Assembly (NCBI GenBank): GCA_965219575.1
Contig: OZ244779.1
Span: 64,001 to 128,000 of the forward strand
DNA length: 64,000 nucleotides
Reading direction: 5' to 3'
Source: Candidatus Oxydemutatoraceae bacterium
GTDB taxonomy: Bacteria; Pseudomonadota; Gammaproteobacteria; Poriferisulfidales; Oxydemutatoraceae
Part shown: positions 1 through 64,000 of the stretch, in pieces
How positions within the stretch are numbered: the stretch's first letter is position 1
How the letters are laid out: every line of letters begins with the position of its first letter
Program-made: the position numbers and the translations under genes
Notes under the pieces: model-generated
Told to the model about the DNA's origin: nothing
The model's input: the letters and a program-made list of their open reading frames with translations, nothing else
The model's database searches: none

Positions 1-195
1 AGCCGGTAGGTCAATCGGCGTCACATTGTGCAGAACCTCAACATGATTGCTAAACGCATGCATTGCAAAGTGCGTAGGCCACCCCTCCGAAGGAGGGGAA
101 TGTACCGCTCCTACGGTTCATGGATACTTTTTCAACAGCCCCACGCGTATCTGCACGAGTAGTATTGACCCATCCCCCTCCTTCGGAGAGGAATG
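1..195. repeat. Mosaic intergenic repeat (CCGATTGA-hairpin module, CCCCTCC/GGAGGGG hairpins, TTTTTCAACAGCCCC end)
   Basis: Same modules recur at 10625-10910, 14228-14398, 39613-39897 and elsewhere. Confidence 0.85.
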
Positions 196-1862: not shown

Positions 1863-2235
1863 CTCTTTTCTCCTATTGCTAAATTATAAATAAATACCCT
1901 GCTGAAGCAAGGTTTCGCTACGGATACTAATAGCACAGCGGCATATTGGCGAGATTCGGCAATCCGACGAACGGTAGTAAATATTAGATAGACGGTGTGA
2001 GGTTGTAGGAGGATGGTGCGTTTGGAGTGTACCGATACTGTGCTTGTGCAGACCTGCGGCGACTGTTGAAAAAGTATTGGTAACGCAAAAATCCAACCGC
2101 TTGCGCCAACAAATAATGGTTTCCATAAATTGGATGGATGAATGTATAAATCATGCAGATACGACGGGGCTGTTGAAAAAGTACCGTTCTGCACGAACCC
2201 AACCGCTATGCGCCGAATAATTATCCAACCCACCC

Positions 2236-2261
2236 GTAGGGGCGGACTAACATGTCCGCCC
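2236..2261 (+). repeat. GTAG-type REP hairpin (left of RAYT)
   Basis: GTAG + GGGCGGAC...GTCCGCCC palindrome. Confidence 0.9.
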
Positions 2262-2433
2262 TAAAGTGCCGTTCTGAACAGCCGCAACCGCTTGCGCCAT
2301 TTGGGTTTGGTTTCCATAAATTAACTGGTGTACGATTTTATTTGTGCAGACGCAACGCATCACAATTCTACACAACGCTACGCCGATTGACCTACTGGTT
2401 CAATCGACAGTTCTGTTTTTCAATAGCCCCATG

Positions 2434-3000
2434 TCAACCCCTTGCAACTTTATTTTCTGTATTCAATGTATCGGTTGACCATTTCTGTGGGTTATATTTG
2501 ATGTATTTACGGATTTCATGTAAAAATATCTCATTATCGATAATACCATCCCAATAACTGCGCTGCCATAGCTTATTATCGAATCTCTCCCAGCCGTATC
2601 GCTTAACACCACGAATATAATCTGTGGTTGTCATAGTCTTCCACCATCGCACAATACAACTTAAAGATATTTTTTGGTTATCATGCGCAACGATAGAATG
2701 GCATTGTTGCTGCGCTTCTGTAATAGCAATAATAAAATGAATGTGATTCGGCATCACCATGCACTCATCGCATTTTATACCGGCAAACTGATGCTCAATT
2801 TGATAAAACCAAAACCATAGCATATTACCGGCATCATTACATTGCATTTGATTATTGATAATATCGCCGAATAAATATAATTTATTCCGAACACAGATTG
2901 TGACGAAATACATTCCCGGTTGAGCATAGTCGTATCCTTTCAATCGCATAGATTGACGACGGCGAGCATAAGTTTTAGGTTTGACATTTTTGTTTCTCAT
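2434..3000 (-). CDS. REP-associated tyrosine transposase (RAYT, Y1/HUH, IS200-like fold)
   Basis: RRQSMRLKGYDY...YFVTIC N-terminus, HUH motif MPNHIH, WQRSY, catalytic YIKYNP; flanked by inverted REPs. Confidence 0.92.
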   Translation of the reverse strand: MRNKNVKPKTYARRRQSMRLKGYDYAQPGMYFVTICVRNKLYLFGDIINNQMQCNDAGNMLWFWFYQIEHQFAGIKCDECMVMPNHIHFIIAITEAQQQCHSIVAHDNQKISLSCIVRWWKTMTTTDYIRGVKRYGWERFDNKLWQRSYWDGIIDNEIFLHEIRKYIKYNPQKWSTDTLNTENKVARG

Positions 3001-3165
3001 AAATAATCCTTGTGGGTTAAGAATTGAATAGATGTGTATATCAAAAATTTATCAAGATAGTGAGTTTGTCTATTTAGCAATTCGACAGACGGTAGCAAAT
3101 AAACGACGAGTGGTTGTCGTAATTAGGTGGCGCAAGCGGTTGGGTTTGTGCCGAACGGTACTTTA

Positions 3166-3191
3166 GGGCGGACATGCCAGTCCGCCCCTAC
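3166..3191 (-). repeat. GTAG-type REP hairpin (right of RAYT, inverted)
   Basis: GGGCGGACATGCCAGTCCGCCCCTAC. Confidence 0.9.
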
Positions 3192-3319
3192 GGCTCGGTG
3201 GTTATCGTAAATTCAATGGCGCAAAGCGGTTACGGTTTTGCAGAACAGTATTTTTTCAACAGCCTCACGACACAACCACCCCGTCAGGCTGCGCCTGCCA
3301 CCCCTCCAGAGGAGGGGAA

Positions 3320-6962: not shown

Positions 6963-7396
6963 ACCGTAGGGGTGGGCATAAACTTGGTGGATAAATGTAT
7001 AAATCGTGCAGACACGCTGCGACCACCCCGTCAGGCTGCGCCTGCCACCCCTCCACAGGAGGGGAATGGACCAACACTATACTCGGGCAGACACGGCGGG
7101 ACTGTTGAAAAAGTGCGGCATCCTACGAATCCAATCACTTGCGCCATTTGGTTTTGGTTTCCATAAATTGGCTGGATGAATGTATCAATCGTGCCGACCA
7201 ACGCGTTACGGGCGGACATGCTAGTCCGCCCCTACATTTTATGAAATACTTTTTCAACAGCCCCACGCTACCACCACCCCATGAAAAGGCTTACATTTTT
7301 TATATATGCTAGGGTTCTGCACAATGTTACGCCGATTGACCTACTGGCTCAATCGGTGGTTCTATTGCGCCTGCCACCCCTCCACAGGAGGGGAAT
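6963..7396. repeat. Mosaic intergenic repeat including a TIR element 7098-7264 with one REP
   Basis: GGGACTGTTGAAAAAG...TTTTTCAACAGCCCC; REP near 7210-7235; two CCCCTCC/GGAGGGG hairpins. Confidence 0.85.
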
Positions 7397-10624: not shown

Positions 10625-10907
10625 ACATTCCCCTCCTTTGGAGGGGTGGCCTATGCATTTTGCAATGCATGCGTTTAGCAGTCATGTTGAGGTTCTGAAC
10701 AAAGTCACGCCGATTGACCTGCTGGTTCAATCGGCGGTTCTATTCAGCCTGACGGGGTGGTTGTGTCGTATCTGCATGATTTATACATTCATCCATCCAA
10801 TTTATGGAAACCGTTATTTGTTGGCGCAAGCGGTTGGTGTCGTGCAGAACGGTACTCTAGGGCAGAAATATTAAATTGCCGATTGACCCACCGGCTCAAG
10901 CGGCGGT
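10625..10907. repeat. Mosaic intergenic repeat; contains an empty TIR-insertion site
   Basis: Reverse strand of about 10745-10795 reads ...CATGCAGAT ACGAC ACAACCACCCCGTCAGGCTG. Confidence 0.85.
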
Positions 10908-12269: not shown

Positions 12270-12412
12270 AATGAATGGGTGAATGTGTTCATCATGCAGA
12301 TATGGCGCGACCACATAAGAGGATAAACCTTAGTTTATCCGACCTACATTCTTATGTTGAGGTTCTGCACAAAGTCACGCCACTTGCCCAACTGGAGCAA
12401 GTGGCGGTTCTA
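12270..12412. repeat. Mosaic repeat with a compensatory-variant hairpin GCCACTTGC/GCAAGTGGC
   Basis: Aligns to the GTTGAGGTTCTGCACAAAGTCACGCC... module. Confidence 0.75.
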
Positions 12413-12682: not shown

Positions 12683-12949
12683 ATGAAGAGAAAACGTTTT
12701 AGTGAAGAACAAATCATTAAGGCATTAAAGTCAAATCAAGCCGGCATGAAAGTAATCGATATCTGTCGTGATCTAGGCATCGCCGAACAGACATTTTATC
12801 GCTGGCGCAGCAAGTATAATGGCATGGAAGTGGCAGAAGCTAAACGCCTGCGAGAGCTTGAAGCCGATAATAGCAAGCTCAAGAAGCTATTGGCTGAATC
12901 GGTGATGCAGTGTGAAACACTTAAGGAGGTATTATCAAAAAAGTGGTAA
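12683..12949 (+). CDS. IS3 transposase OrfA
   Basis: MKRKRFSEEQII HTH, TFYRWRSKY. Confidence 0.93.
   Translation: MKRKRFSEEQIIKALKSNQAGMKVIDICRDLGIAEQTFYRWRSKYNGMEVAEAKRLRELEADNSKLKKLLAESVMQCETLKEVLSKKW
12923..12943 (+). promoter_or_regulatory. -1 programmed frameshift signal
   Basis: AAGGAGG (12923-12929) upstream of AAAAAAG (12937-12943) at the OrfA/OrfB overlap; OrfB is in the -1 frame. Confidence 0.8.
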
Positions 12950-14227: not shown

Positions 14228-14398
14228 ATGGATGAATGTATAAACATAGTACGGATACGACACAACCACCCCGTCAGGCTGAATAGAACCGCCGATTGAA
14301 CCAGTCGGTCAATCGGCGTGACTTTGTGCAGAACCTTAACATGACTGCTAAACGCATACATTGCAAAATCCATAGGCCACCCCTCCACAGGAGGGGAA
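14228..14398. repeat. Mosaic intergenic repeat (second empty TIR-insertion site)
   Basis: GGATACGACACAACCACCCCGTCAGGCT plus CCGATTGA and CCCCTCC hairpins. Confidence 0.85.
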
Positions 14399-32300: not shown

Positions 32301-33374
32301 CACCTCACCATGAGCAGAACTATTCTCAATGTGTATAATATCGGCATTACCAACTAATCCACCTACCCAGTATTCCCCTTCCACCGTCCCGGTGGCATGA
32401 CTGTTAACAATTCTCCACGCTCTATCTGAAAAACTATCTAATGCTGTCCCAACCCTACCTATTAGTCCACCTACGCTAATAGCTCCGGTAACATTCCCGA
32501 CTGCACGACTATTAATGATTTGACCGGTTCTGAAAAAAGTTTCGGCAGTCGTTCCGACTAACCCACCTACCTCCGCAACTCCCGATACGGTGTTGAATGC
32601 TTGACTATTTTTAATTGTGGAATAAGTGCTACCTACTAAACCACCCACTTTATCGCCTGTTCCTATCACAACGCCGGTTGCAGAACTGTTCTCAAGAACG
32701 GGAGATGCAAGAGATGTAAAACTATTATAACCAACCAGTGCACCTATCCGAGAAACACCTCTTATACTGCCGCTAACATAGCTATTTCTAATTTTTCCGG
32801 GCTCGTTACGAGCAACCAAAGCCCCTACTCTTGATTTCCCCTGAATATTCACATCCAGTAGCCGAATATCCTTAATTTCCCCCCCGACACCATTAACAGC
32901 AAATAGACCGACATTATCGCTATTAGGCCTATTGATCGTCAAATTTCGGATAGCATAACCATTACCTTCAAACGTACTATCCTGGACTATATTCCCACTC
33001 CCGAAAGGTGCTACAACACTCCCGATCGGTAGCCAACCCGAACCTACCACCCAATCCGTGCGAATTACTCCACTGCGATAACTGTTAGCATCTAGAAAAT
33101 CTAAACCTCTCATCAGCTCATAACCCCTACAACGATTACCGGGACAACCTGCGGTGATCTTCTCTGCCGACTCGTTAGCTTTATAACCGGTGCCGTCCAG
33201 TTGATAACGGATGACATTCAGCCCCTCCAAATCGCAAATATCTATTAACCCATCGTTATCCTTGTCTATATCGGTCAAAGAACAAGGAGATAAAGGCAAT
33301 GTCTGTGCCGCGGCAAACTGCCATGGCATAGCACAAAGAAAAAATGCCAATAGAATAAATATTTTGTGTGCCAA
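17352..33374 (-). CDS. Giant secreted adhesin-like protein, 5340 aa (GLUG-type beta-helix regions, cadherin/Ig-like repeats, KVFLEGPLQ tail)
   Basis: Signal peptide, DIDKDNDGLID Ca-type loops, many VGGLVG/VGGFIG repeats, about 7 repeated modules ending YTDGQGY. Confidence 0.88.
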   Translation of the reverse strand: MAHKIFILLAFFLCAMPWQFAAAQTLPLSPCSLTDIDKDNDGLIDICDLEGLNVIRYQLDGTGYKANESAEKITAGCPGNRCRGYELMRGLDFLDANSYRSGVIRTDWVVGSGWLPIGSVVAPFGSGNIVQDSTFEGNGYAIRNLTINRPNSDNVGLFAVNGVGGEIKDIRLLDVNIQGKSRVGALVARNEPGKIRNSYVSGSIRGVSRIGALVGYNSFTSLASPVLENSSATGVVIGTGDKVGGLVGSTYSTIKNSQAFNTVSGVAEVGGLVGTTAETFFRTGQIINSRAVGNVTGAISVGGLIGRVGTALDSFSDRAWRIVNSHATGTVEGEYWVGGLVGNADIIHIENSSAHGEVVATGIAIGVGGLVGLINEKGGRIDKSHATGSVTGIRRVGGFLGGAIGAIDFDDSYATGSVTGIRRVGGFIGHALGGSITNSYAIGMVQVRQRSENIGGFIGQSGGTRIMNSYAIGNVQGGQGGSRVGGFIGSTDDVNIINGYATGRVQGGEESRGVGGFIGISLVGSIRNSHAIGNVEGDIVTGGFIGQSEGTRIINSYAASHVGGRGTVGGFIGFSSAVITDSYATGSVAAVQTVGGFIGVAEGGSITNSYAASHVRGGETVGGFVGFSSAVITNSHATGNVTAGNDGGGFVGFHDTDGSITNSYATGNVVAESGAGGFVGFHLSVITNSYATGNVVAERDAGGFNAAGSGVITHSYWDRQTSGRASSVGGRGKTTSELQLPTTSTGIYSSWDDDVWDFGTSEQYPALKYSDGTLQPNQRLGLLRLGLPSSLILSPFFKPEVLSYRVIDETDIRQIRLTPAAANFDTDIIIESSGGFRERMPSGTTSSEISLNTVGVTTATVEVLTSHDVLIRYTLAFNDRTFNEGERIILKRTTARDVDESTLRYKWTQVSGMLRLLPVEGISQAVLDVPIPELSLSKTEDDREITIRLEINDGTKTETKDLRLTIAKADNGTAVQSDPIITRSDRTLTAPEVDLSTDPDGSGTINSYLWQRRADINADWIDIEGVTGNMYRVPEDTAYAEYRVQYAYTDGQGYVQVLISEVFIFITDVDIDNNGLIEINDLEGLDAIRYQLDGSGYRQNETADKITTGCPDAGCKGYELKRSLDFERSTSYRSGIIGTAWTTGSGWLPIGTSKAPFDATFNAKGHTIANLRIDRSSAARGVGLFGITASNAEIANVGLLDVNISGNQGVGGLVGYKQGGSIIGSYVTGQVRGSGTYDVGGLVGWHRGGTISDSYSSSTVVGLRRNVGGLVGDNDGGTISDSYAKGNVNGEEEVGGLVGRNNNTGIIMRSRAEVKVDGGGRVGGLAGENSGIITNSYTGERIIGRADVGGLAGWNSGAITNSYALGFVKGDNGVGGFVGNNLQGTITNSYARGNVDGANRYIGGLVGWSARGAIINSYAQGNVRGKDGVGGLVGVNLGLANNSGVGRVTKSYATGRVRGDANSGGLIGENRDGHVEKSYWNKTNNPTVVSAGGISRTSVEMQIPTQPGNSVTEIYYDWSTADWDFSATDQYPTLEYAVGLDQSQPACGTAEDPDCGTPLTGQLQIVRTAPIEPISDIRLLTETVKDLNVVLSVGIGDDPTQFKTGVKSSNDNIATASIAEGGGLVRTLRVFTGSDIGRSEITVSVDDGEGSADSVSSTTFVVTTETNDAPKITITSLSELISVDDRIVISVEVMDDNFDAGDRVLLTSSVVSEVLVEPRQIAGISSNKTERITLKGVRGGTAMVRFTVIDSKGAADSETVSVRVDAKPTGSVRIEPDSSNKWLLGSTSTIEDANGIAEVDYRWYRNGVVIANATNRNYMIADNREGRATGTSYRLELTVIDSIGQSVVIQSNSLRVANERPVIISTTATKMIGEGDTQNISVSASDPNYDNLMYRWSEDSGILSNEHSNPAILGIPPDYIKDAASTRTTVNLEVRVSDGELATTGTVSVVVNKQNNGSATLGNLIEIGSRETTLAVMVLSDDPDNGVSGAVGYQWQVCEGNEGRCPSESNWMNINDAGGTQYIISDSSILLEDGSTLPLVVGDSLFRVEGTYTDGQGYSEVVYSQGYSYSGRVNASPTISGLPLQRIRLFEGTETTLNVTINDADADDISGNLVFGVQSDIPEVARVDVAGAGTTRTIKITAIGAGIATITATVNDDRGVSNSKVSERFEVEVEGNEAPMLEVIAAPEQTTGLGNTTQVVVLVSDTNFDVGDRVVLEAMSSSRSRVSVLPTQTDTITTDTMITFMLTAEQSGEATITFTATDSKNVSTDTEVMVRVNTPPQVLSDDVPSRVVATVGEAFELKTSEFFADADDDVLRYSAVGLPQSIVITTTGTLVGVPLIGDASKNGTGLMVTVSVDDGIGGSTRTTFTLLIDAKPSGSLRVNPDDQWLLTAMVEDANGIVEVNYRWYRNGVAIASATSPTYTIPDNRAGRAAGTNYSLELTVIDSIEQSVVIQSNSYMIANERPIITSITVAEMINEGDTQDISVIARDPNYDDLMYRWSEDSGVLSNDNSNPTTLGIPPDYIQDAVSSRTTVNLEVRVSDGELATTGTVSVVVNKRNNGSARLGTSIEIVSAGTTLTTMVLSDDPDNGMSGAVAYQWQVCAGNEAGCPSANDWLDIDDATGTQYMILGSSISVEGGDLFLLVEGRSLFRVEGAYTDGQGYREEVYSQGYSYSKRVNASPTINGLPVQRIRLLEGTKTEFEVELNDPDADDISSDLVFGIQSDIPEVARVDVEGAGTTRTIKITAIGVGITTITATVNDGRGMSNSEVSERFEVEVEGNEAPMLEVIVFPQQILGLGNTTQVMVLISDINFDVGDRVVLEAMSSSRSIVSVIPTRTDPIATDMSVPFTLSGIKAGTATIVFTATDRSVSTDSVSLLVSVDAKPTGGVRVDPDDQWLLTAIVEDANGIVEVNYQWYREGVAIAGATSPTYTIADNREGRAAGTSYSLEMTVIDSLGQSVVIRSNSYTVANERPIITVPVAKMISEGDTQDISVTASDPNYDDLMYLWIGDSGVLSNENSNPARLSIPPYYIRDAVSTQTILNLEVGVSDGELFTTRTVLVVVNKKNNGSARLGLSLDEINGDTAIMTTVSSDDPDGGTGEAVAYQWQVCEGNGFFCPSENDWLDIEGATEAQYIISGSSILLEGGSRFQIVKDSSVFRAEATYTDGQGYSETIDAPRYTHRERVNNSPKISGIPLQRIRLFKGTETKFVVVLSDADTDDISSDLIFGIQSDEPEVVSVSVEGAGTTRTIKITAIGVGIATVTATVNDGRGVSNSEVSKQFEVEVEGNEAPMLEIIIAPQLAIKPGNTTQVVVLVSDTNFDIGDRVVLEAMSSSRSIVSVVPTQTDTITTDTSITFTLTGVKAGTAAITFIVMDGAGLRGSVALSVRVNARPNDSVSITPDDTNKWLLRSTSTIADASDIVGVNYRWYRNSIAITDATSRTYMITDNRAGRATGTSYRLDLIIMDNLGQSVVIESNLYVIANERPVITSITAAEMIAEGDTQNISVSASDANYDDLMYRWSEDSGILSNEHSNPATLNVPPDYIKDVASTRTTLNLEVEVSDGELATTSAVLVEVRKKNNGSATIRISVEIGSRGTTSTAMILSDDPDGGTSGTMVYQWQVCEGNEGRCPSQSHWMNIDDAGGIRYMISGSSILVEDGSTFPLVEGGSLFRVEGTYTDGQGYREEVYSQGYSYSTRVNASPTISGLPAQRIRLFEGTEAEFEVELNDLDADDISSNLVFGVRSDTPEVARVDVAGAGTTRTIKITGVGAGIATITATVNDDRGVSNSKVSERFEVEVEGNEAPMLEVIAVPMQTIGLGNTTQVVVLLSDTNFDVGDRVVLEAVSSSRSRVSVLPTQTDTITTDTIITLMLTAKQSGEATITFTATDSKNVSTDTEVMVRVNTPPQVLFDNVPSRVVATVGEAFELKTSEFFADADDDVLRYSAVGLPQSIVITTTGTLVGVPLIGDASKNETGLMVTVFVDDGIGGSTRTTFTLLIDAKPSGSLRIEPDNSDKWLLRAASTIEDANGIVEVDYRWYRNGVAIAGATSQTYTIPDTRAGRTAGTSYSLEMMVVDSIGQSVIIQSNSHTIANERPVIIVSGAEMINEGDTQDISVSASDPNYDDLMYRWSEDSGVLSNDNSNPATLGIPPDYIKDAASARTTLNLEVRVSDGALFTTRTLSVVVNKRNNGSARLGTAIEIVSAGTTLTTMVLSDDPDNGINGAVAYQWQVCAGNEAGCPSANDWLDIDDATGTQYMILGSSISVEGGSAFPLVEGGSLFRAAGTYTDGQGYREAVYSQGYSYSTRVNVSPTISGLPARRIRLLEGTETEFEVVLNDADADDISSDLVFGIQSGTPEVARVDVEGAGTTRTIKITAIGVGIATITATVNDGRGVSNSEVSERFEVEVEGNEAPMLEVIAAPNRTIGLGNTTQVMVLVSDADFDVGDGVVLEAMSSSRSIVSVIPTRTDPIATDMSVPFTLSGIKAGTATIVFTATDRSVSTDSVSLLVSVDAKPTGGVRIEPDSSNQWLLRVASTVEDANGIVEVNYQWYREGVAIANATNPTYTIPDSRNGRAVGTSYSLEMTVMDSLGQSVVIRSNPYEVANEQPVITVPVAEISEGDRQDISVTASDPNYDDLVYRWIGDSGVLSNENSNPARLSIPPYYIRDAVSTQTILNLEVEVNDGELFTTRTVLVVVNKKNNDFARLGVSLDEINGDTAILATVSSDDPDGGTGEAVAYQWQVCEGNGFSCPSANDWLDIDGANEAQYIISGSSILLEGGSRFQIVKDISVFRAEATYTDGQGYRETIDTPGYTHRERVNNSPTISGIPSQRISLLEGAEAVFGVELSDADADDISSDLIFGIQSDEPEVASVSVAGAGTTRTIKITGIGAGITTVTATVNDRRGVSNSEVSKRFEVAVEGNEAPMLELIAAPQPAIRLGNTTQVMVLISDTNFDVGDGVVLAARSSSRTIVSVIPTQTDTITTDTSITFTLTGVIAGTATVVFTATDSRGSTANVSLLVRVGKKPTGRVRIEPDNSNKWLLRATSTLEDADNIVGVNYRWYREGVAITDATSRTYMIADNKLGRATGTSYRLDLIIMDNLGQSVVIQSNSYIVANERPVITSTTATEVIGEGDTQNISVSASDANYDDLMYRWSEDSGVFSNDNSNPATLDIPPDYIKDAASTRTTLNLEVEVSDGELATTSAVLVEVRKKNNGSATIRISVEIVSGGTTLTAMILSDDPDGGTSGTVVYQWQVCEGNEGRCPSESHWMNIDDAGGIRYMISGSSILVEGGNRFSVVEDGSLFRVKGTYTDGQGYREAVYSPERVYTTRPLLRIRTKVFLEGPLQ

Positions 33375-33398: not shown

Positions 33399-36092
33399 TT
33401 ATGGTGGCGGACGATTTGAGACAGCCGTGTGCATGCGGTATAACACAACTATCGCAAGCAATAAGAGTAGCAACAACGGATAACCCACAAAACCACCACT
33501 GCTACTGCTACTACGATTCTCCGCTTCTCTCATCTCACTCTCCGACAAAAGGTTCTCGTCGCTGACCGTGAACTCATAATACCCTCTACCCCCCTCGGCA
33601 TGGGCAACCGATGCTAAATAATCACCCGCTCTAGGGGCAATCCATTCAATGCTCGATACATCGCTGCCACGATAACGCTCACTTCGCTCTATTAAACTCG
33701 TCCCGTCAGGCTCGTATAAGCTCAAATCCGTCGCCATTCGGGTATTATCGTAGCCCATTAAATTACTCGTCTGTAGATAATAGCTTTCACCCTCGCGCAT
33801 CGTATTAAACACATACCAATTCACCTGGCCGGCACGCTCGATTGAACTTTTATCCAAATACGGTATGCTCGTAATCGTCGTCGGTTGAACCGACAACGGC
33901 GGTGGCATCAGCTTCTCTTCGGTATTCACCACATCTACTTGGTCATAAACAACCCGCTCAAATATCGGGGCCTGTTGCGGCACCGTCGGCACATTGAAAA
34001 TTGCAGAGTCGCCCGGTGACAGCACCGGATGATATAACAAACTCGTATCGTCCAACAATGCATGACCGTCAAGGTTGCTTACGGTCACCTTAATCTCGCA
34101 TATCCCGTCTTGAGAATAATCCGCCAACATCGCCGAATACAAACCGTCGGCGGCAGTCTCATCCGGCGCATTGCCGTCGTCGGTCAATACAACAGACATC
34201 GTAGAATCATCCGGCATCGTAATATCCGCCTTCACATCGGCACGGGTTATCGGCAACCCACCGGCGACATTGACCAAAATCGGGATAGGCTCGGGATAGG
34301 TGACCACCTCGCTCGGAACCTCCTGAACGATAATTTCCGCACCGGCATTGATGCCGACAACGATATCGCTACGCACCGCCGCCTCATACGCAAAGTTTCC
34401 GGTACCGGTAATCCGCACTTCCCATATACCCGGTGTCGGGGAACCGATATAATAGATTGCTTGTGTATCGCTTTCTAAATAACGCACCCCGTCGGTTGCT
34501 AAGTTGTCGGCATATGCTTGATCTATAATCACACCGGTCGGGTCTTGTAGCGTAAAGCTGTCAAAGTAAGCATCATCATCCCACCTCAAAATAAAACTTG
34601 CCGACTCGGTCATCTCCGATATGACCGTATCGGTCGTCACCACATCCTCAAAGAAGCGATTATGCAACGATACCGATTTTGCCAACTGGGCATTGCGGAT
34701 TAACGACTCATTCCTGAATACACTAGGCAAAAAGCTAGGCAGTCTTTGTGAGTCTACTTCCATCTTGAATCGGTTCCTCGTCTTTAGCGTGGCATCCTGC
34801 AAAACCACCCGACCCTCGGTATCCAGTTCCACCGTGTAGACCGATATGCCGTTGTCCTTAAAATACCCGTAGTCCGACTGTTCGGTCTCGCCGTCGGAAA
34901 TGATGACCAGTGCGCGATGACCGTCGCTCGCTACATTCGCAAAAAGTGTCTGTGCCTCCGCCAAAGCCGCTTCATAGTCGGTGCCACCGTCGGCAACCAA
35001 TGAATCAATCACCGACTGGATCATCCTCAGGTTTTCTATAGCATCCAATCGGCTCGGCATCACTTCGGTTCTGGCAATGTCGTCAAAACCGATAATTCCC
35101 AGTTCTATCGGAGGAGCCTCTGCATAGAGTACCTCTACTACATCTTTGGTAGCTTGTTTTGCCACTGCCAATCGTTGATTATCCCCCATACTCGCAGAAT
35201 GATCCATCATCATAACAACGGTGCCGGTACTTGAAACCCAATCGATTGTCGGCGGCGTGCAGGTATAAGAGTCGAATAGCCGATCAAAATCCGGCAAACC
35301 GACACCTGCTTGGAATAAATGGTCTTGTCTCGGGAAACGTGCGTTCAGTTGGTCTGCCCTAATACGATCAAGGTAGGCCGGTTGTATAAGGACTTCCCAT
35401 GCCGATTTCCCGTAACAATCTGATTGCACAGTGATGATATTTCCTTCCTTCGGATAATCTCCGGGATGACTAAACCTACGAAAATCTTTGTTTATTACCC
35501 CCATTAGAGTAGGCAGTTCATTATGCAATGTCACAGTTATTTGGCATGAAGCCGCCAAGGCAAAAGTATATTCATCGTATAGAGACCATAGACTATGGCC
35601 TAGTTCGTGGGCCATAACCAGACCACCAACATTCGGGATATGATGAATAAGTCGTTCAATAGACGGTTTCCCATAAGTAAACCCTCCTAGAGCGGCATTT
35701 GATATTCCTGGAGAATTACGGTAAGTGACATCGGCAGGACGTCCATCCGTATAAATAGAAACTCTGCGTATCCTTGAATTAGCCACAGAGGATTGACACC
35801 AAGAATTCGCAAATTGTCTAATCTCTTCGTTTACAGCATCTCTGTTCTCGCCTTCCCACTCCGAAGGATCAGCTGGACGCATTGAATACGAAATATCACA
35901 TTCTACAATTTTACCCTGATTGTTGTTCACAACCTCGCATTGCGAGTAAACCGGGCTAGCCCATAAACTCAAAAAGATCAAAACAAGCAGGGAAAGTTGC
36001 TTATCGTGGGAGTGAAACTGTACACCTGCTCCCCCCAACAACATTTTTTTGATGTAAGACTTATAATAACATCCGTTGTAGTGTTCTAACAT
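33399..36092 (-). CDS. CLCA-like zinc metalloprotease-vWA surface protein with GlyGly-CTERM anchor
   Basis: HELGH...LYDEY, MIDAS DHSAS, ISDG, DDGNAPDETAADGLYS, SSSSGG-TM-R tail; start uncertain. Confidence 0.8.
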   Translation of the reverse strand: MLEHYNGCYYKSYIKKMLLGGAGVQFHSHDKQLSLLVLIFLSLWASPVYSQCEVVNNNQGKIVECDISYSMRPADPSEWEGENRDAVNEEIRQFANSWCQSSVANSRIRRVSIYTDGRPADVTYRNSPGISNAALGGFTYGKPSIERLIHHIPNVGGLVMAHELGHSLWSLYDEYTFALAASCQITVTLHNELPTLMGVINKDFRRFSHPGDYPKEGNIITVQSDCYGKSAWEVLIQPAYLDRIRADQLNARFPRQDHLFQAGVGLPDFDRLFDSYTCTPPTIDWVSSTGTVVMMMDHSASMGDNQRLAVAKQATKDVVEVLYAEAPPIELGIIGFDDIARTEVMPSRLDAIENLRMIQSVIDSLVADGGTDYEAALAEAQTLFANVASDGHRALVIISDGETEQSDYGYFKDNGISVYTVELDTEGRVVLQDATLKTRNRFKMEVDSQRLPSFLPSVFRNESLIRNAQLAKSVSLHNRFFEDVVTTDTVISEMTESASFILRWDDDAYFDSFTLQDPTGVIIDQAYADNLATDGVRYLESDTQAIYYIGSPTPGIWEVRITGTGNFAYEAAVRSDIVVGINAGAEIIVQEVPSEVVTYPEPIPILVNVAGGLPITRADVKADITMPDDSTMSVVLTDDGNAPDETAADGLYSAMLADYSQDGICEIKVTVSNLDGHALLDDTSLLYHPVLSPGDSAIFNVPTVPQQAPIFERVVYDQVDVVNTEEKLMPPPLSVQPTTITSIPYLDKSSIERAGQVNWYVFNTMREGESYYLQTSNLMGYDNTRMATDLSLYEPDGTSLIERSERYRGSDVSSIEWIAPRAGDYLASVAHAEGGRGYYEFTVSDENLLSESEMREAENRSSSSSGGFVGYPLLLLLLLAIVVLYRMHTAVSNRPPP

Positions 36093-39912: not shown

Positions 39913-42195
39913 CTAGCGGAGGGCACCCTCTAGAAATACTTTTACATTCACCCGAATGGTCGTCAAAGAGATACCCTCCGTCTCAACCTTCTCGGGATAT
40001 CCTTGTCCGTCGGTATAGCTTAATCCGGCACGAAATATCCTACTGCCGTCTTTCGAAGTAAAGGTTTCGCCACCCTCCAACTCAATTTCAGGTCCCGATA
40101 TGATGTACTGCGGCGCAGTCGCCCCGGCAATATTCTTCCAATCATCGTCCGTAGCACAACGCCCCTCATCCTCCGTACACACTTGCCACTGATACATCGC
40201 ATTTTCATCGGGACCACCGTCGGGGTCGGTGGATATTATCGTCGCCGTTAGGGTCACCGCACTGCTTCCTATCTCTACCGAGTCTTCTATGGTCGCCCGA
40301 CCGTTATTTATCTTTCTCACCGACAACATCACCATCCTTGCCGTAGAGAAAGTGCTGTCGCTTACTTCCACCCTCAGAACGAGCGTCGTGCTCGTCAATG
40401 CAGCGGCTACAAAGTCCGGAGGAATACGCAATAGTGCCGTGTCTCTATCGGTATTATCCAATGCCTCGGTGTCTCCGCTCCAGCGATATGTCAAGTAATC
40501 GTTGTTCATATTGATTACCTGCACGCTAATGCTTTGCGTCGAACCTTCGTCTATCGTCGTCATCGGTACGGTAATACCGGCAATAATCGGCGGCGTGTCC
40601 TCTTCGTCTACTCTGACATTCAGCAAGACCGGTTCGGATCGTGCATTATCACGACCGCTATCGTCCGTTGCCACCAATCTCAGTTGTGTCACCGATGTCG
40701 CAACCGCAGCCGAGATTCTAATTCTTAGGTCAAACATGTTTACGGTATCATCGCTCGGAGGCACCTGTACGCTTGTAGTTATTAAATCCTCTCCGTCTAT
40801 ATCTAAGGCACTCCATTCCACGGTGAGTCTATTGCCTATATCTTCATCGTCGTCGGACACCACCATGCGAATTCTGCTTTCTCCCCTTTTGAACAGCGTG
40901 ATTTCGGTGTCGGAGCGCGGAGATATAATTTGCGGTTGTGCGTTCCTTGCGTAGCGTAATATGGTTTCGCATACAGGCTGCTGAGAGGTGCCACAGGCCG
41001 GGGTGTCGCTACCACTACCCGGCGCATATCTGACCACCGGGTATTGCTCGGATGTACCGAAATCCCAGTTTTCCTCGCGCCATAAATAATAAGGTTGGGT
41101 GTTGGAGGTTGCGATATCCGTGTTCGGACTCATCGGGCTTCGCAATTCCTCTGTGGTGAAACCACGGAAATTGCTAACAATACTGGAATCACCCCTAGTT
41201 TGATACGGTAATAGATTTGCCCCCTTCTCCGTATCCCAATAACTATTTTCTATGGTTCCCGATGGATTATGTCTTATTATCGGGTGGTTAACATTCGTAG
41301 ATATGATGTAAAGGGTGTTGGATGTATCTCCTCCGTTTGCTCTTTTTATTATTCCTTGATAATCACGCATCCCTAGAGTTAATTGAAAGGAGCTATCGGA
41401 CAGTTTGCCGTTGCTATCTATTTCGTTTCTGATCAATGCGGCACCACCCCTACCTCGAATTTGTAAGTTGACATCAACATTAGATATTTCACCGTTGTTA
41501 ACATAAATCAAAAGACTCTTTCGTATCGGATTAAATCTCTCGGTTATTTCCCCTCCAATATAGCAGTTTATAATCTCTCCTCTGTTATCGTAAACGAAAT
41601 AAGACTCTGCAAAATTGAGGCGTCTCCCTACCCGCATATTCAAAAAATTCAGGTTGCGGATTTGCCCATTTAAGTCGGCTATAAATCCTAATCGGTTATC
41701 GGTATTATCCGATCTATTTTGAAATAAGTTTGATATGCTGTGACCGTTGCCTTCCAGAATGCTTAAGAAGTCTCCCATATTAGACCAGCCTCCGCCTGTC
41801 GTCCAATCCTCGTTGACCATGCCATTTCTGTAGCTATCGCCGTCCTGAAAATCCAAATCGCGCACGAGTTCGTAACCATTACAGCCATCGGCACGACAAC
41901 CTGTGGTGTCCGGCTGAGTTGCAGGGCTATTGTTAGTGCTATAACCGGTGCCGGTGATTTGATAACGCATGTTAAATAGATCTTCCAAATAACACATCTC
42001 TATCAAGCCGTCGTTGTCGTTGTCTATGTCGGCATCAGCACAGACCGCTTCGGCATTGGGTGAGAATTCACTCCACGAATCACCTATGAACATCGGCTCT
42101 GTTTGAGCCAATGCCGACTGTACAAAAATTGATCCCAAACACAGCAGAATTAACCATTTGCCGAGTCCCACATGAGTTGTGTCTTTATGTGCCAT
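39913..42195 (-). CDS. Secreted short paralogue of the giant protein with KVFLEGALR tail (about 760 aa)
   Basis: MAHK start and signal peptide, DIDNDNDGLIE, WDFGTSEQYP, YQWQVC, YTDGQGY shared with the 5340-aa protein. Confidence 0.82.
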   Translation of the reverse strand: MAHKDTTHVGLGKWLILLCLGSIFVQSALAQTEPMFIGDSWSEFSPNAEAVCADADIDNDNDGLIEMCYLEDLFNMRYQITGTGYSTNNSPATQPDTTGCRADGCNGYELVRDLDFQDGDSYRNGMVNEDWTTGGGWSNMGDFLSILEGNGHSISNLFQNRSDNTDNRLGFIADLNGQIRNLNFLNMRVGRRLNFAESYFVYDNRGEIINCYIGGEITERFNPIRKSLLIYVNNGEISNVDVNLQIRGRGGAALIRNEIDSNGKLSDSSFQLTLGMRDYQGIIKRANGGDTSNTLYIISTNVNHPIIRHNPSGTIENSYWDTEKGANLLPYQTRGDSSIVSNFRGFTTEELRSPMSPNTDIATSNTQPYYLWREENWDFGTSEQYPVVRYAPGSGSDTPACGTSQQPVCETILRYARNAQPQIISPRSDTEITLFKRGESRIRMVVSDDDEDIGNRLTVEWSALDIDGEDLITTSVQVPPSDDTVNMFDLRIRISAAVATSVTQLRLVATDDSGRDNARSEPVLLNVRVDEEDTPPIIAGITVPMTTIDEGSTQSISVQVINMNNDYLTYRWSGDTEALDNTDRDTALLRIPPDFVAAALTSTTLVLRVEVSDSTFSTARMVMLSVRKINNGRATIEDSVEIGSSAVTLTATIISTDPDGGPDENAMYQWQVCTEDEGRCATDDDWKNIAGATAPQYIISGPEIELEGGETFTSKDGSRIFRAGLSYTDGQGYPEKVETEGISLTTIRVNVKVFLEGALR

Positions 42196-42268
42196 TTGTA
42201 TGAGATGTTCCGGAATCATTTTTCTATCAACCGTATTATACATAGTCATAACGGGGTGGTGATGGCAG

Positions 42269-42477
42269 GGGGCTGTTGAAAAAATACCGTTTTGCACGAT
42301 TGTAACCGCTTGCGCCATTTGGTTTTGGTTTCCATAAATTGGATGAATGAATGTATAAATCATGCCGGCCAACGCGTTACGGGCGGACATGCCAGTCCGC
42401 CCCTACGGGTGGTTTGCGAATATTCACGGCGCACAGCGGTTAGATTTGTGCGATGTCCACACTTTTTCAACAGTCCC
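42269..42477. mobile_element. TIR-bounded MITE-like element with one REP
   Basis: GGGGCTGTTGAAAAA...TTTTTCAACAGTCCC; flanks GGCAG/GGCGG. Confidence 0.7.
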
Positions 42478-42541
42478 GGCGGTTGTGAACACTCTATTGA
42501 GAGGTTTTACAACACCGAGTGGTCGGGGTTGTACGGGGTGA

Positions 42542-43733: not shown

Positions 43734-43901
43734 AGGGCTGTTGAAAATGTATCCATGAACCGTAGGGGCGGACTAGCATGTCCGCCCGTAACGCGTTGTG
43801 CCAGCACGATTTATACATTCATCCATCCAGTTTATGGAAACCAAAACCAAATGGCGCAAGCGGTTGAATTTGTGCGATGCCGACACTTTTTCAATAGACC
43901 C
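43734..43901. mobile_element. TIR-bounded MITE-like element with one REP
   Basis: AGGGCTGTTGAAAA...TTTTTCAATAGACCC; internal GTAG REP. Confidence 0.7.
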
Positions 43902-46726: not shown

Positions 46727-49097
<2,371 letters not shown>

Positions 49098-49212
49098 TGT
49101 GTCGTATCTGTAAAATTTATACCCAAATTTCACATTTTTGTAATATCTAATTTGTCAACTGCTATATAATCAGGAATGCTTTATGTTGATATAACATTTG
49201 TGGAGAAATGAA

Positions 49213-55063: not shown

Positions 55064-55264
55064 CCGTAGGGGCGGACTTGTATGTCCGCCCTAAAGTGTC
55101 GTTCTGCACAGCCGTAATCGCTTGCGCAGTATGGTTTTGGTTTCCATAAATTAACTGGTGTACGATTTTATTTGTGCGGACGCAACGCGTTACAGTTCTG
55201 CATAACGTTACGCCGATTGAGCCGGTAGGTCAATCGACGGTTCTATTTTTCAACAGCCCCATGT
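55064..55264. repeat. Mosaic repeat colinear with 2234-2434
   Basis: REP + spacer + CCGATTGA hairpin + TTTTCAACAGCCCCATGT. Confidence 0.88.
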
Positions 55265-55540
55265 TTATGATGCCACCGCCAATACAACGCTTGCCAAGAA
55301 TACACCTATAATCGAGGTCATCGCAACGATGCTTCCGATGAATAATGCAACACCCCATTTTGTGATGTCTGCTCTTAGTTCCGATTGGGCTGCTTTTACT
55401 TCTGCTATCTCGGATTTAACTTCAGCCTTAAACTCCGTTATCTCAGACTTAACTTCAGCCTTAAACTCCGCTATTTCAGACTTAAACTCTGTGCGCATGT
55501 TAACTATCATTTCGTATAGTTTTTCGTTGGTTATGTTCAT
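55265..55540 (-). CDS. Small coiled-coil/TM protein (subfamily A), 91 aa
   Basis: Paralogue of 1620; start at MNITNEKL after GGAG. Confidence 0.75.
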   Translation of the reverse strand: MNITNEKLYEMIVNMRTEFKSEIAEFKAEVKSEITEFKAEVKSEIAEVKAAQSELRADITKWGVALFIGSIVAMTSIIGVFLASVVLAVAS

Positions 55541-55731
55541 ATCTTTCTCCATATTGAAATTATAAATAAATACCTCGCTAAAGCAAGGCTTCGCTACGGA
55601 TACTAATAGCACAGCGGCATATTTCCGAGATTCGGCAACCCGACGAACGGTAGCAAATATCAGACAGACGGTGACCTTGGCCCATTTTTAGTGCCACATC
55701 CATAACGAATTTTCATCCTGCCGCCTCAAAT

Positions 55732-55758
55732 TTGACAGCCCCCCCCCCATGCTAAATT
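55732..55758 (+). promoter_or_regulatory. Sigma-70 promoter with C10 tract in the spacer
   Basis: TTGACA-G-C10-ATGC-TAAATT (15-bp spacer, extended -10 TG). Confidence 0.7.
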
Positions 55759-55824: not shown

Positions 55825-56871
55825 ATGATGTATTGGGCAATGCGTACTTACAGAAAATCAGAAAAGCATACTTACAAAAAAGCGGCAGAGCTGCGCAAAT
55901 TCCTTGCTAACGAATTATTCTCAAAGGGTCGGCTACGTCAAGGTTGGGGATGGGAACACGATCAGGACCTTCGCAAAATTCGAGAAATGTTGCGTAAGGG
56001 CAAGACGCTCAATGACGGACAGAACAAAGCTAACGGAAATCGATTTATGCTTGATGGCGACCCTTCACAACACATGAACGTCGGTGATATCGTTCTAGTG
56101 CCGAACATGCCGTACGACGGCACCTTCACGCTTTGCCGCATCACTGGCCCCTACGAATATGAAGTCTCAGAGCATGGTGAATTCGGTCATATTCTACCTG
56201 TTGAGGTGCTGACACTAAGTGGTGTTGCAAACAATCACGAACTGGTTGATGCTGGACTTCGCCAAAGCCTGCGATGTCTTCGCCGGAAATGGTGCATATC
56301 TCCTTACTCCGACTGTCTGGAGGCGATAATCCAGAGCAATCTTTCTGCCGAATCCCTTGCACAGGGCGTCACGGCAGCGGAGCGTACCGACAGCCTTGTT
56401 TCTGAACTCATCACCGAACCAATTAACGTTATGGCGAGCGATCTCGCAGATAAGCTCCCCAAATTCCTTCAAGGTGCGGAATGGGAGACTGGCATCCTGT
56501 CCGCGTTGGAACCGTTGTTTCCGGCAACCGTTCGACACACTGGTGGCAGAAGCGAACAAGGCGCGGACTTGGAAGTCGTCATTTCCAACCCTTTTGACGA
56601 TAGTAAAAATTGGATAGTGCCGATTCAGGTCAAAGACCATTGGGGCACTGAAAGAAAGGGTGTTGTCCGCCAACTCGAAGAAGCCTATGATACGCGCTCC
56701 GAGAGAGGCATTGTCATTGCCGTGGTGCTCCTCGTAACCAGAGCAGAATCTTCCCCTGAATTGGAAGCGGAGATGTCTCGGTTAAGCGATGAAAAAGGCG
56801 TACCGTTCATATTCTGTAGCGGTGATGATTTGATGCAGATTCTCGCAAGGGGTTTCTTGAAGCGCATCTAG
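55825..56871 (+). CDS. Putative restriction-like PD-(D/E)xK endonuclease (Mrr-like C-terminal domain)
   Basis: LRQGWG N-terminal domain; EQGADLEV...IQVK catalytic pattern. Confidence 0.7.
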   Translation: MMYWAMRTYRKSEKHTYKKAAELRKFLANELFSKGRLRQGWGWEHDQDLRKIREMLRKGKTLNDGQNKANGNRFMLDGDPSQHMNVGDIVLVPNMPYDGTFTLCRITGPYEYEVSEHGEFGHILPVEVLTLSGVANNHELVDAGLRQSLRCLRRKWCISPYSDCLEAIIQSNLSAESLAQGVTAAERTDSLVSELITEPINVMASDLADKLPKFLQGAEWETGILSALEPLFPATVRHTGGRSEQGADLEVVISNPFDDSKNWIVPIQVKDHWGTERKGVVRQLEEAYDTRSERGIVIAVVLLVTRAESSPELEAEMSRLSDEKGVPFIFCSGDDLMQILARGFLKRI

Positions 56872-56997: not shown

Positions 56998-57219
56998 TTA
57001 TGATGCCACCGCCAATACGACGCTCGCCAAGAATATACCTATAATTGAGGTCATCGCAACGATGCTTCCGATGAATAATGCAACACCCCATTTTGCGATG
57101 TCTGCTCTCAGTTCCGATTGGGCTGCTTTTATTTCAGCTATCTCGGATTTAACCTCAGCCTTAATCTCTGTGCGCATATTAACTATCATTTCGTATAGTT
57201 TTTCGTTGGTTATGTTCAT
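56998..57219 (-). CDS. Small coiled-coil/TM protein (subfamily A), 73 aa
   Basis: Paralogue of 55265 and 1620. Confidence 0.75.
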   Translation of the reverse strand: MNITNEKLYEMIVNMRTEIKAEVKSEIAEIKAAQSELRADIAKWGVALFIGSIVAMTSIIGIFLASVVLAVAS

Positions 57220-57452
57220 ATCTTTCTCCATATTGAAATTATAAATAAATAGCCTGCTAAAGCAAGGCTTCGCTATAGATACTAATAGCACAAAGGCCTA
57301 TTAACGAGATTCGGCAAACCGACGAACGGTAGCAAATATTAGACAGACGGAGACATTAGCCCATTATTAGTGCCACATCCATAGCGAATTTTCATGCTGT
57401 AGCCTTCGTAAATAGACTAGGGCTTGATACGCCAAAATTATCAACCCAAAAT

Positions 57453-57485
57453 TTGACAGCCCCCCCCCCCCCCCCGTGCTATACT
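57453..57485 (+). promoter_or_regulatory. Sigma-70 promoter with C16 tract in the spacer
   Basis: TTGACA-G-C16-GTGC-TATACT (21-bp spacer, extended -10 TG). Confidence 0.7.
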
Positions 57486-57550: not shown

Positions 57551-58438
57551 ATGGCGAAAATAAACCTTGCTCATTTGCTAGATATAAACTTGGATCAGTT
57601 GAACCAATACAAATTTCATGCTGCTGTATGGAATGGTTGGAAACATCCTTTGGATGATTTCATAAAAGATGGAAAAATTGCAGGTAGAGGAGACGATTCG
57701 CTTTGGTGGGGGTGGCAAGCCTATCATGAGGAAGGAAAGAAAGATAGGTGGACACGTCAATACATTGTGTCGTTCATGCAATTTTACCCTGAAGGCATAA
57801 AAATGTGGTTATTCGGCGGTATATTTGAGGTGAAGGGGAAAAGAGAGGATGGTTATTATGATGTACATTTAACAGACAAAGGAAAAGAATGGATTGGTCG
57901 CTTAAAAGTTTCTTATCCGGAACCTAAAAGACAAAGATATCCATATTTAGAGAATGTTTATGATGATCTCGAATTTAGTGAGATGCTAAAAGTACGATAT
58001 TCTGGTGCAATCTTCCCTGGCTATGAAAATGTTAGTCTGAAATTTGATGAACTTGAGTTTATCGTCAATGCCAATAAAGAGGACTGGAAAAACACTTTAT
58101 CCTCTGTCAAAGGCATTTACGTTATTTTTGATAAAGAGACTGGCAAAAAATATGTAGGTTCAGCCTACGGAGAGAATGGAATTTGGGGTAGATGGTGTCA
58201 ATATGTGGAGCATCTTCACGGCGGTAACAAAGAACTAAAAAAACTCCTTGAAGGCGATAGCCTGCAGGAAATATTTCAAAAAGAAGATTCTAGAGATTAT
58301 GTAAGAAAAAATTTTAGATTCACGATGATTGAATGGACATCTTACAAAAACAAAACCGACGACTCATACATCATAGGACGAGAGAACTTTTGGAAAGAAG
58401 CACTTCTGAGCCGCGAGTTTGGATATAACGCAAATTGA
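57551..58438 (+). CDS. GIY-YIG nuclease family protein
   Basis: KGIYVI...YVGSAYG...RW..Y, HGGN, REnFWK, GYNAN; AT-rich. Confidence 0.88.
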   Translation: MAKINLAHLLDINLDQLNQYKFHAAVWNGWKHPLDDFIKDGKIAGRGDDSLWWGWQAYHEEGKKDRWTRQYIVSFMQFYPEGIKMWLFGGIFEVKGKREDGYYDVHLTDKGKEWIGRLKVSYPEPKRQRYPYLENVYDDLEFSEMLKVRYSGAIFPGYENVSLKFDELEFIVNANKEDWKNTLSSVKGIYVIFDKETGKKYVGSAYGENGIWGRWCQYVEHLHGGNKELKKLLEGDSLQEIFQKEDSRDYVRKNFRFTMIEWTSYKNKTDDSYIIGRENFWKEALLSREFGYNAN

Positions 58439-59194: not shown

Positions 59195-59717
59195 ATGCCA
59201 CCCCATGTAAAGGTTTTACATTCTACAATATGGACTAAGATTTTGTACGATATTACGCCGATTGACCCACTGGCTCAATCGGCGTTTCTATTGCGCCTGC
59301 CATTCTTCCGAAGGAGGGGAATGTACCAGCACTGTACTTATGCAGACCATTACGGGCTGTTGAAAAAGTATCGCCGGCGTGCAACCGTAACCGCTTGCGC
59401 CGTGAATTTATAATAACCACCAAGCCGTAGGGGCAGACCTGTGTGTCTGCCCTTAAGTACCGTTCTGCACGACACCAACCGCTTGCGCCGTATAGTTTTG
59501 GTTTCCATAAATTGAATGGATGAATGTATAAATCGTGCCGGCCAACGCGTTACGGGCGGACATGTTAGTCCGCCCCTACGGTTCGTGGATACTTTTTCAA
59601 CAGCCCCCATTAGCAACCACCCCGTCAGGCTGCGCCTGCCATTCTTCCGAAGGAGGGGAATGGACCGACACTATAATTATGCAGATACGCCACGGCTGCC
59701 TTTCCACAGGAGGGGAA
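59195..59717. repeat. Large mosaic intergenic repeat
   Basis: All repeat modules present; hosts the TIR element 59353-59607. Confidence 0.85.
59353..59607. mobile_element. TIR-bounded MITE with inverted REP doublet and 5-bp target duplication
   Basis: CGGGCTGTTGAAAAAG...CTTTTTCAACAGCCCC flanked by CATTA/CATTA. Confidence 0.8.
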
Positions 59718-63619: not shown

Positions 63620-64000
63620 CCGTGGAAAGGTTTTACATTTTGTACCATGTGTTAAAGTTCTGCACAACGTTACGCCGATTAACCTACTGGCTTAATCGGC
63701 GGTTCTATTGCGCCTGCCACCCCTCCAAAGGAGGGGAATGTACCGACATTGTACTTAGTGCAGACTCTTAGGGGCTGTTGAAAAAGTATCCACGAACCGT
63801 AGGGGCGGACTTGCATGTCCGCCCGTAACGCGTTATGCCTGCACGATTTATACATTCATTCATCCAATTTATGGAAACCAAAACCATATGGCGCAAGCGG
63901 TTGAGTTTGTACGGAACGGTACTTAAGGGCAGACACACAGGTCTGCCCTACGGCTTGGTGGTTATTATAAATTCACGGCGCAAGCGGTTACGCTTGCACG
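63620..64000. repeat. Mosaic repeat with a TIR start (63771) and REP doublet, running off the window
   Basis: GGGGCTGTTGAAAAAG; REPs near 63799-63824 (+) and 63927-63951 (-). Confidence 0.85.

Follow-up and report, generated by a model that had tools for sequence, protein, structure and literature searches.

A repeat family that is most likely an IS1182-type MITE fused with REP/RAYT features and nesting at a fixed site

RESULTS

General features of the locus

The window, that is, the whole 64-kb stretch of DNA that was analysed, belongs to a sulfur-oxidising bacterium, since it encodes SoxY, SoxA, and a SoxB-like protein at 49.6-53.4 kb. Its intergenic DNA is dense with short repeats, the modules of which are shuffled in many orders. 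Besides the family with the terminal repeat T1, with which this work is concerned, the mosaic contains a B hairpin, a C hairpin, the module 'GTCAGGCTG', and around 13 GTAG-tagged REP hairpins of the form GTAGGGGCGGAC..GTCCGCCC. The entire window gave no Rfam match at the gathering score, and a 495-nt repeat region had no relatives on plasmids. A literature search with the TIR string in CC-licensed PMC and bioRxiv texts returned, judged by titles and among the 15 of 49 matches listed, no paper on MITEs; the titles were those of Staphylococcus agr-typing studies and one unrelated paper. The coordinates of the T1-related features are given in Table 1.

Several other elements were recorded in the window. 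A repeat of ~350-400 nt, the apparent product of which is a small protein containing short internal repeats in tandem, is present in three copies on the minus strand (1641-1997, 55260-55716, and 56998-57395), two of which adjoin poly-C promoters. The poly-C tracts (10 at 55739-55748 and 16 at 57460-57475) are located between TTGACA and TAAATT/TATACT, upstream of the ORFs 55825-56871 and 57551-58438, the second of which has a weak GIY-YIG match, and may be slippage-prone promoters. A 5,340-aa ORF on the minus strand (17352-33374) is composed of 7-8 tandem repeat units of ~1.5 kb that are 62-94% identical. It is followed by an 897-aa VWA-domain protein (33399-36092), and a relative of its repeat was found at 39955-40291, within ORF 39913-42195. 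An IS3-family transposase OrfB (NF033516, 221.5 bits), unrelated to T1, is encoded on the plus strand at 12943-13767 in a repeat-rich intergenic region. An ISL3 origin of T1 was considered and rejected, since the Pfam ISL3 match in ORF 211-1425 corresponds to a tail domain that DesA desaturases normally have; this minus-strand ORF encodes a DesA-family fatty-acid desaturase (NF049918, 524.8 bits), and its C-terminal 'ISL3-like' tail is not an IS remnant.

Table 1. Positions of the T1-related features in the window
Feature	Position	Strand	Remarks
Partial T1 element	1..154	+	Ends at 142, then ACGCGT (6 nt) and ATCTGC (GCAGAT on the minus strand)
T1 half-element after GCAGAC and CTGCG	2048..2165	+	Inner end meets the T2 block interrupted at 2166
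Filled T2, 1,101-bp T1..T1' unit 2166-3266	2155..3282	+	GCAGAT, ACGAC, unit, ACGAC, ACA, ACCACCCC
RAYT (REP-associated tyrosine transposase) gene, 188 aa	2434..3000	-	Centre of the 1,101-bp T1..T1' unit
Uninterrupted T2 block GCAGACACGCTGCGACCACCCC	7008..7029	+	
Filled T2, 167-bp short-form MITE 7098-7264	7087..7280	+	GCAGAC, ACGGC, MITE, ACGCT, ACC, ACCACCCC
Uninterrupted T2 block	10754..10775	-	Flanks identical to both junctions of the 2166-3266 insertion
Uninterrupted T2 block	14251..14272	+	Two mismatches in the GCAGAY half
209-bp MITE 42269-42477	42253..42482	+	Left GGGGTGGT, GAT, GGCAG; right GGCGG; of T2, the ACCACCCC half only
GCAGAC, T2 left half	59342..59347	+	End of the 'U-tail' arm
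CATTA, left duplication copy	59348..59352	+	
Long-form T1 MITE, 255 bp	59353..59607	+	TIR, L-arm with REP 1, central segment, R-arm with REP 2, TIR
Left T1 terminal inverted repeat	59353..59372	+	CGGGCTGTTGAAAAAGTATC
GTAG-tagged REP hairpin 1	59427..59457	+	GTAGGGGCAGAC..GTCTGCCC
GTAG-tagged REP hairpin 2	59549..59579	-	Inverted relative to hairpin 1, REPIN-like arrangement
Right T1 terminal inverted repeat	59588..59607	-	
CATTA, right duplication copy	59608..59612	+	
GCA and ACCACCCC, T2 right half	59613..59623	+	
Long-form MITE, opposite orientation, after GCAGAC and TCTTA	63760..64000	+	Cut by the window end

The T1 elements and their ends

The T1 terminal repeat GGGGCTGTTGAAAAAGT is ~20 nt long, with the tip GGGG and the core CTGTTGAAAAAGT. 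When up to three mismatches were allowed, the T1 pattern matched the window 19 times versus 2.09 matches expected, and a count of 19 was reached by none of 100 shuffles. The match at 11833, which has three mismatches and no family context, was left out, so that 18 T1 ends were counted. The elements are non-coding and intergenic, with paired ends 167-259 bp apart, and they combine the properties by which bacterial MITEs are recognized, namely TIRs, a fixed-length duplication, many copies, and no coding capacity. The copies are 84-93% identical to one another, leaving out the composite 2166-2430 (67-73%); therefore, partly decayed duplications with 3/5 or 4/5 matching positions are to be expected among them.

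Position of the T1 ends in a bipartite block

The sequence-only reading from which this analysis started had placed five TIR tips exactly 5 nt after GCAGAC/T, at 2059 (CTGCG), 2166 (ACGAC), 7098 (ACGGC), 59353 (CATTA), and 63771 (TCTTA), and all five were recovered. In a scan of motif spacings in the 40-nt outer flank of each T1 end, GCAGAY was located outside the tip with a spacer of 5 in 5/18 ends and with a spacer of 6 in 1/18 (the end at 142, newly found), and with no other spacer. The motif GGGGTGGT, which is the reverse complement of ACCACCCC, was present at a spacer of 8 in 4/18 ends and likewise at no other spacer. The binomial probabilities calculated from the motifs' own window frequencies were ~2e-13 for the GCAGAY spacing and ~7e-14 for the GGGGTGGT spacing. 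The proposed enrichment of GCAGAY applied to its position beside T1 only and did not hold window-wide (61 occurrences vs 55.3 expected).

GCAGAY and ACCACCCC are the two halves of a single 22-nt block, T2, with the structure GCAGAY-N5-N3-ACCACCCC. The halves of 6-8 nt are conserved and the 8-nt spacer is variable, with the 5-mers ACGCT, ACGAC, ACGGC, CATTA, TCTTA, CTGCG, and ACGCG and the 3-mers GCG, ACA, ACC, GCA, and ATC. In addition to the uninterrupted copies in Table 1, a degenerate fourth copy is located near 12295. Read by eye, 12 repeat-context GCAGAY-type tails were distinguished, of which seven have a T1 end attached (one of them at 6 nt and a degenerate one at 4 nt), three are empty T2 blocks, and two continue otherwise. 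At 42253-42268, T2 is represented by its ACCACCCC half alone, with the spacing retained. The earlier designation of GCAGAY as the target was right in that it is part of the target, which as a whole has 22 nt and consists of two parts separated by 8 variable nt. These statements are based on a small sample from 64 kb, in which three filled sites are complete and four or five are one-sided, and on three short related loci.

The target had also been taken for another repeat family, and here the alignment of the T2 arm with the T1 R-arm led to a different assignment, the tip of a sister arm within the same superfamily. The alignment consists of an 8-nt tip, a 54-nt gap, the post-REP segment, and a shared interior. 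Since the 54-nt gap spans the remaining core and the REP, T2 corresponds to the end of a sister arm in which the REP is missing. The outer 8-10 nt of T2, GGGGTGGTTG, resemble the T1 tip GGGGCTGTTG. Most filled blocks are preceded by the 'U-tail', another variant of the REP-less sister arm. As a side observation, the long-form copy 48842-49100 has no GGGG tip at its right end (49080-49135), which is fused head-to-head with a T2-type arm remnant (..CAACAG joined to TTGTGTCGTATCTGT..).

T2 was also considered as a hairpin target, which was rejected, as folding of the three empty blocks, for two of which both strands were used, was no better than that of shuffled sequences (z -1.1 to +0.7). Consequently, the stem-loop targeting known for the IS1182 family does not explain the choice of this site.

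Five-bp duplications and independent insertions

All four left/right 5-mer pairs that had been named from the sequence were correct. The CATTA pair is exact (59348-52 and 59608-12), and the element between its two copies is therefore 59353-59607. The pair ACGGC/ACGCT (7093-97 and 7265-69) matches at 3/5 positions and GGCAG/GGCGG (42264-68 and 42478-82) at 4/5. The ACGAC pair is exact as well, and its right copy is located at 3267-71, 1.1 kb off beyond a gene, and not at the nearest right end at 2430. Since ACGAC is the commonest 5-mer of the uninterrupted block, this pair by itself is not copy-specific evidence. Two of the six complete pairs in the window have no clear duplication (43734-43901, and 48842-49100, where the right tip is irregular).

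The left and right 5-mers were compared at nine tip offsets, with permuted pairings as the null. The prediction that left and right 5-mers would agree more often than shuffled pairs was borne out in the window: for the six nearest pairs, only the tip+2 offset stood out, with a mean of 3.17 of 5 matches (permutation p=0.0026), while the other eight offsets gave p values of 0.07-0.89.

With ~45 nt of flanking sequence included on either side, the uninterrupted block 10754-10775 agrees in full with the left junction at 2166 as far as ACGAC and, starting from ACGAC, with the right junction at 3266. This block and the 2166-3266 insertion are paralogous sites, one empty and one filled, which reveal a clean duplication of 5 bp. 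The CATTA pair is not descended from the ACGAC pair, because both sides would have needed the identical change. GCAGAY is faced by the L-arm at 59353, 7098, 2166, and 2059 and by the R-arm at 63771 and 142, and the T2 position is occupied by short, long, and 1.1-kb forms. The duplication in one register, the difference between CATTA and ACGAC, the two orientations, and the empty paralogs together indicate that this position received insertions independently three times or more. The view that the copies arose by independent, site-specific insertions is upheld in part by the same evidence, with the restriction that T1 ends are also found elsewhere. The apparent preference for T2 may be inflated by survivorship, because insertion into existing repeats is harmless.

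T1-like elements in other genomes and the link to IS1182

A scan of genome contigs with a 15-nt T1 pattern gave at least 119 loci (numbered with the prefix L), nearly all from unrelated genomes; among the matches listed, only L003, L100, and L118, from 'Candidatus Porisulfidus' MAGs, are relatives of the window's repeats. In the matches listed, the 15-mer bounds short paired elements of 110-330 bp in MAGs labelled as many different phyla. The TIR core GGCTGTTGAAAAAGT was observed at the ends of short paired elements in the loci L007-L107, for example, at L011 2857-2976, L027 1376-1711, and L083 299-445.

In the unrelated genomes, 17 GG-tipped pairs had a mean of 2.35 matches at tip+2 versus 1.22 under the null (p=0.0002), and at that offset only. 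Five of these pairs matched at 4/5 positions or better, and three were exact (L011 CTTGT, L027 CTCAT, and L083 AAAAC). L014 (a duplicate of L013), L003 and L100 (window relatives), and L025 and L081 (other tips) were left out of the cross-genome pair counts. For 12 CAGG-tipped pairs from other genomes, no duplication was detectable at the nine offsets; this group has a longer TIR ((Y)TAGCAGGCTG...) that apparently extends further out. L013 and L067 were not counted as insertions in CCCCT..AGGGG hairpin loops, their 5-mers being mismatched in register.

The locus L040 contains a 1.55-kb IS with the TIRs GTGGGTGTTGAAAAAGT / ACTTTTTCAACAGCCAC, flanked by AGGCG at both ends, and its transposase belongs to the IS1182 family (NF033551, 388.6 bits, cutoff 270; Pfam DUF772, DDE_Tnp_1, and DDE_Tnp_1_6). 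Three of five annotated IS1182-family ISs on plasmids have (C/G)TGTTGAAAAA in both TIRs, one of the remaining two has GGTGAAAAACTC, and one has no TIR by the seed used. Five-bp flanking repeats were seen in L040 (AGGCG, with a boundary ambiguous by 1 nt) and L123 (GGGGG/GGGGG), and none in L121 and L122. Among the 73 inner ORFs of at least 200 aa beside T1 matches, in the matches listed, a transposase was encoded in one (L040), and no IS1182-family transposase was detected, either in the window or in the three loci related to it (tblastn, best E=0.42). Because TIRs of IS1182-family members contain the T1 core as well, the T1 elements are most likely IS1182-type MITEs mobilised in trans, an assignment based on the likeness of the TIRs to elements from distant phyla, with one chance find (L040) and five plasmid ISs.

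At L003 and L100, a T1 element is inserted in a REP loop, where it splits CTAACATG and has ACAT(G) on both sides, and RACAT precedes 3/18 of the T1 ends in the window. The REP loop is a second landing place of T1 elements. According to passages in PMC5678879, IS1272, a member of the IS1182 family, targets inverted repeats and stem-loops.

Two further observations were made in these loci. L025 3999-4146 (a 144-bp element) and L040 2469-4017, from two Acidobacteriota MAGs, have nearly alike flanks, AAC(C)AGGCG ... AGGC(C/G)ATTTCAC, which hints at a conserved target there as well. In L015, from a Desulfovibrionaceae MAG, T1-like tips are doubled in tandem at 3321-3500 and 4136-4330, and an element is nested in a T1-like tip (in the order CAGGCTGTTGA, element, TTGAAGACG) beside an 18-nt tandem duplication.

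The RAYT gene within a T1-bounded unit

The 188-aa RAYT protein has HUH and C-terminal Tyr motifs. It matched Pfam Y1_Tnp with 24.1 bits (cutoff 23) and NCBIfam NF047646 (REP-associated tyrosine transposase) with E=5e-13 and 49 bits, below the cutoff of 80. The gene is flanked by inverted arms of ~135 nt (2168-2299 and 3128-3264), each consisting of T1 and a GTAG REP, and this HUH enzyme is the sole transposase physically linked to the arms. More than 1,000 homologs were retrieved, one of which is 99% identical, many of them named RayT, each on a single contig; the database matches suggest a single-copy gene. One relative is encoded on the Porisulfidus contig that holds L003. A comparison with plasmids gave five distant matches with uninformative flanks, and a RAYT profile search of the T1-like loci from other genomes (583,704 bases, among the matches listed) gave none.

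GTAG-tagged palindromic REPs and a RAYT gene with inverted REPs on either side are features of REPIN/RAYT systems. Mobilisation in these systems proceeds without TIRs or duplications, whereas the present units have DDE-type TIRs and 5-bp duplications.

DISCUSSION

The feature is most likely an IS1182-type MITE that has been fused with REP/RAYT features and nests at a fixed site. Specifically, we assign a probability of roughly 0.6 to the reading that T1 elements are trans-mobilised MITEs of the IS1182 type, aimed at the 22-nt T2 block of a REP-less sister arm and nesting into mosaics. The T1 elements would be non-autonomous MITEs of 167-259 bp with ~20-nt TIRs of the IS1182-family DDE type, and an IS1182-type enzyme encoded elsewhere in the genome would move them in trans. 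Integration takes place by a 5-bp staggered cut, as the duplications show, and the preferred target would be the bipartite block (GCAGAY, 8 variable nt, ACCACCCC) at the tip of the REP-less sister arm. Since the cut would span bases 1-5 of the 8-nt spacer, the 5-mer would be found on both sides of the element. In this lineage, the arms would have acquired GTAG-tagged REP hairpins, so that the long form has the REPIN layout of two inverted REPs too, and one arm pair brackets the genome's RAYT gene. A transposase bound to the T1-mimicking T2 tip could place a second element at a fixed distance inside, and repeated nesting would build the intergenic mosaic repeat clusters. From the mimicry of the T2 tip, the spacing at 42253-42268, and the nesting in L015, we infer that a tip-like sequence may be recognized and integration directed a fixed distance inside it.

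A more far-reaching scenario, which we consider doubtful, is that a REPIN population with a RAYT gene, apparently single-copy and vertically inherited, acquired IS1182-type ends, by which two unrelated transposition systems would have become united in one element. A DDE enzyme would then carry the REPs and even the RAYT gene, as part of the 1,101-bp unit with its 5-bp duplication, a tip-mimicking 22-nt landing pad would steer the copies into harmless sites, and the clusters would grow by self-nesting.

Adjacency of T2 and T1 could also be inherited without any targeting, if a few ancestral T2-T1 composites had been amplified by segmental duplication, repeat recombination, and inversion into a BIME-like mosaic. 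The intergenic patchworks with the same modules in many orders and the hybrid junctions, for example, at 100-146 and 49080-49110, are in accordance with such a history, as is the fact that ACGNY is the most frequent 5-mer in empty blocks as well as beside T1, and the long-form copies at 59353 and 63771 are both located behind similar U-long units. We nevertheless regard this explanation as unlikely: the CATTA pair and the ACGAC pair do not come from a single event, the same position is shared by elements that differ in orientation, arm type, and size (two sizes), and the empty paralog equals the filled site base for base.

Mobilisation by the RAYT encoded at 2434-3000 appears quite improbable. 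In that case, the elements would be REPIN-like units, the T1 ends and long arms would correspond to the 'TIRs' of a TIRtron or REPtron, and GCAGAY would be a motif for single-stranded DNA cleavage or targeting. The gene is indeed located inside a T1..T1' unit with ~135-nt inverted arms that each have a GTAG REP, the long-form MITE carries two inverted GTAG REPs, the homologs named RayT are each on a single contig, and TGCAGAM terminates several modules (U-tail, T interior, and C module). RAYT-like genes with long TIRs that form repeat families are described in part of PMC3733652. However, HUH/Y1 transposition of the IS200/IS605 kind produces no target duplication and is orientation-specific, whereas the duplication found here is 5 bp long and register-specific, and the elements occur in both orientations. 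Moreover, T1-type elements with 5-bp duplications occur in many genomes, with no RAYT in the 583,704 bases of loci among the matches listed, and the same TIR core bounds DDE elements of the IS1182 family. A derivation from Tn3-family miniature elements (TIMEs) is very improbable, since of the hallmarks of Tn3-family ends the GGGG tip and the 5-bp duplication are present, but the common inverted repeat is only ~20 nt long instead of ~38 bp, the T1 core occurs in the TIRs of IS1182-family ISs, and the window contains no Tn3-type transposase or resolvase.

The preferred reading, a trans-mobilised IS1182-type MITE that nests in the T2 block, was compared with known systems. The mosaic resembles BIMEs in its clustered palindromic units and linker motifs of variable order in intergenic DNA, and it differs from them in that part of it can be explained by nested transposition with duplications. 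The transposases of IS30 and IS911 are drawn to sequences like their own ends, and insertion takes place adjoining the IR tip; by contrast, the T1 cut is located 11-16 nt inside the tip-like block. T1 elements share with members of the IS1182 family the TIR core CTGTTGAAAAA, and 5-bp flanking repeats were seen in two members (L040 and L123) and not in L121 and L122. Aimed insertion in inverted-repeat structures is described in part of PMC5678879 for the family, and T1 was seen in the REP loop at L003 and L100. Unlike the family members, they are non-coding and carry REPs, and their main target T2 is not a stem-loop. In addition, IS1272 replaces its target and leaves no duplication, according to the passages cited above, whereas T1 elements are flanked by a 5-bp duplication.

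With REPIN/RAYT systems and REPtrons/TIRtrons, as far as these are treated in sections of PMC3116915, PMC3337134, and PMC3733652, the family has in common the GTAG-tagged palindromes and the two inverted REPs of the long form. A RayT-type gene, apparently single-copy, between inverted REP-bearing arms corresponds to the REPtron/TIRtron layout, again according to sections of PMC3733652. The T1 units differ in having DDE-type TIRs and 5-bp duplications and a REP-REP spacing of ~90 nt, and the T1 type of TIR is widespread without RAYT. The insertion sequences IS1397, ISKpn1, and ISPpu9, which target REP/BIME sequences according to parts of PMC1525189, likewise use another interspersed repeat as a fixed-position landing site; they are autonomous ISs of other families, whereas here a MITE enters the end block of an arm that belongs to a sister MITE.

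The small repeats of bacteria are usually divided into REPs, REPINs, BIMEs, and MITEs, each kind with enzymes of its own, and here one element is marked by two of these systems, with DDE-type ends and duplications on the one hand and GTAG REPs with a RAYT gene on the other. In MAGs labelled as many different phyla, short elements with duplications of 5 bp have this TIR core at their ends, which may be of use for annotation. T2 offers a small, defined target of 22 nt, with two conserved halves and a variable spacer, in which the site choice of IS1182-type elements could be studied. If the reading held true genome-wide, it would provide a concrete, testable mechanism for the assembly of mosaic repeat clusters by aimed transposition.
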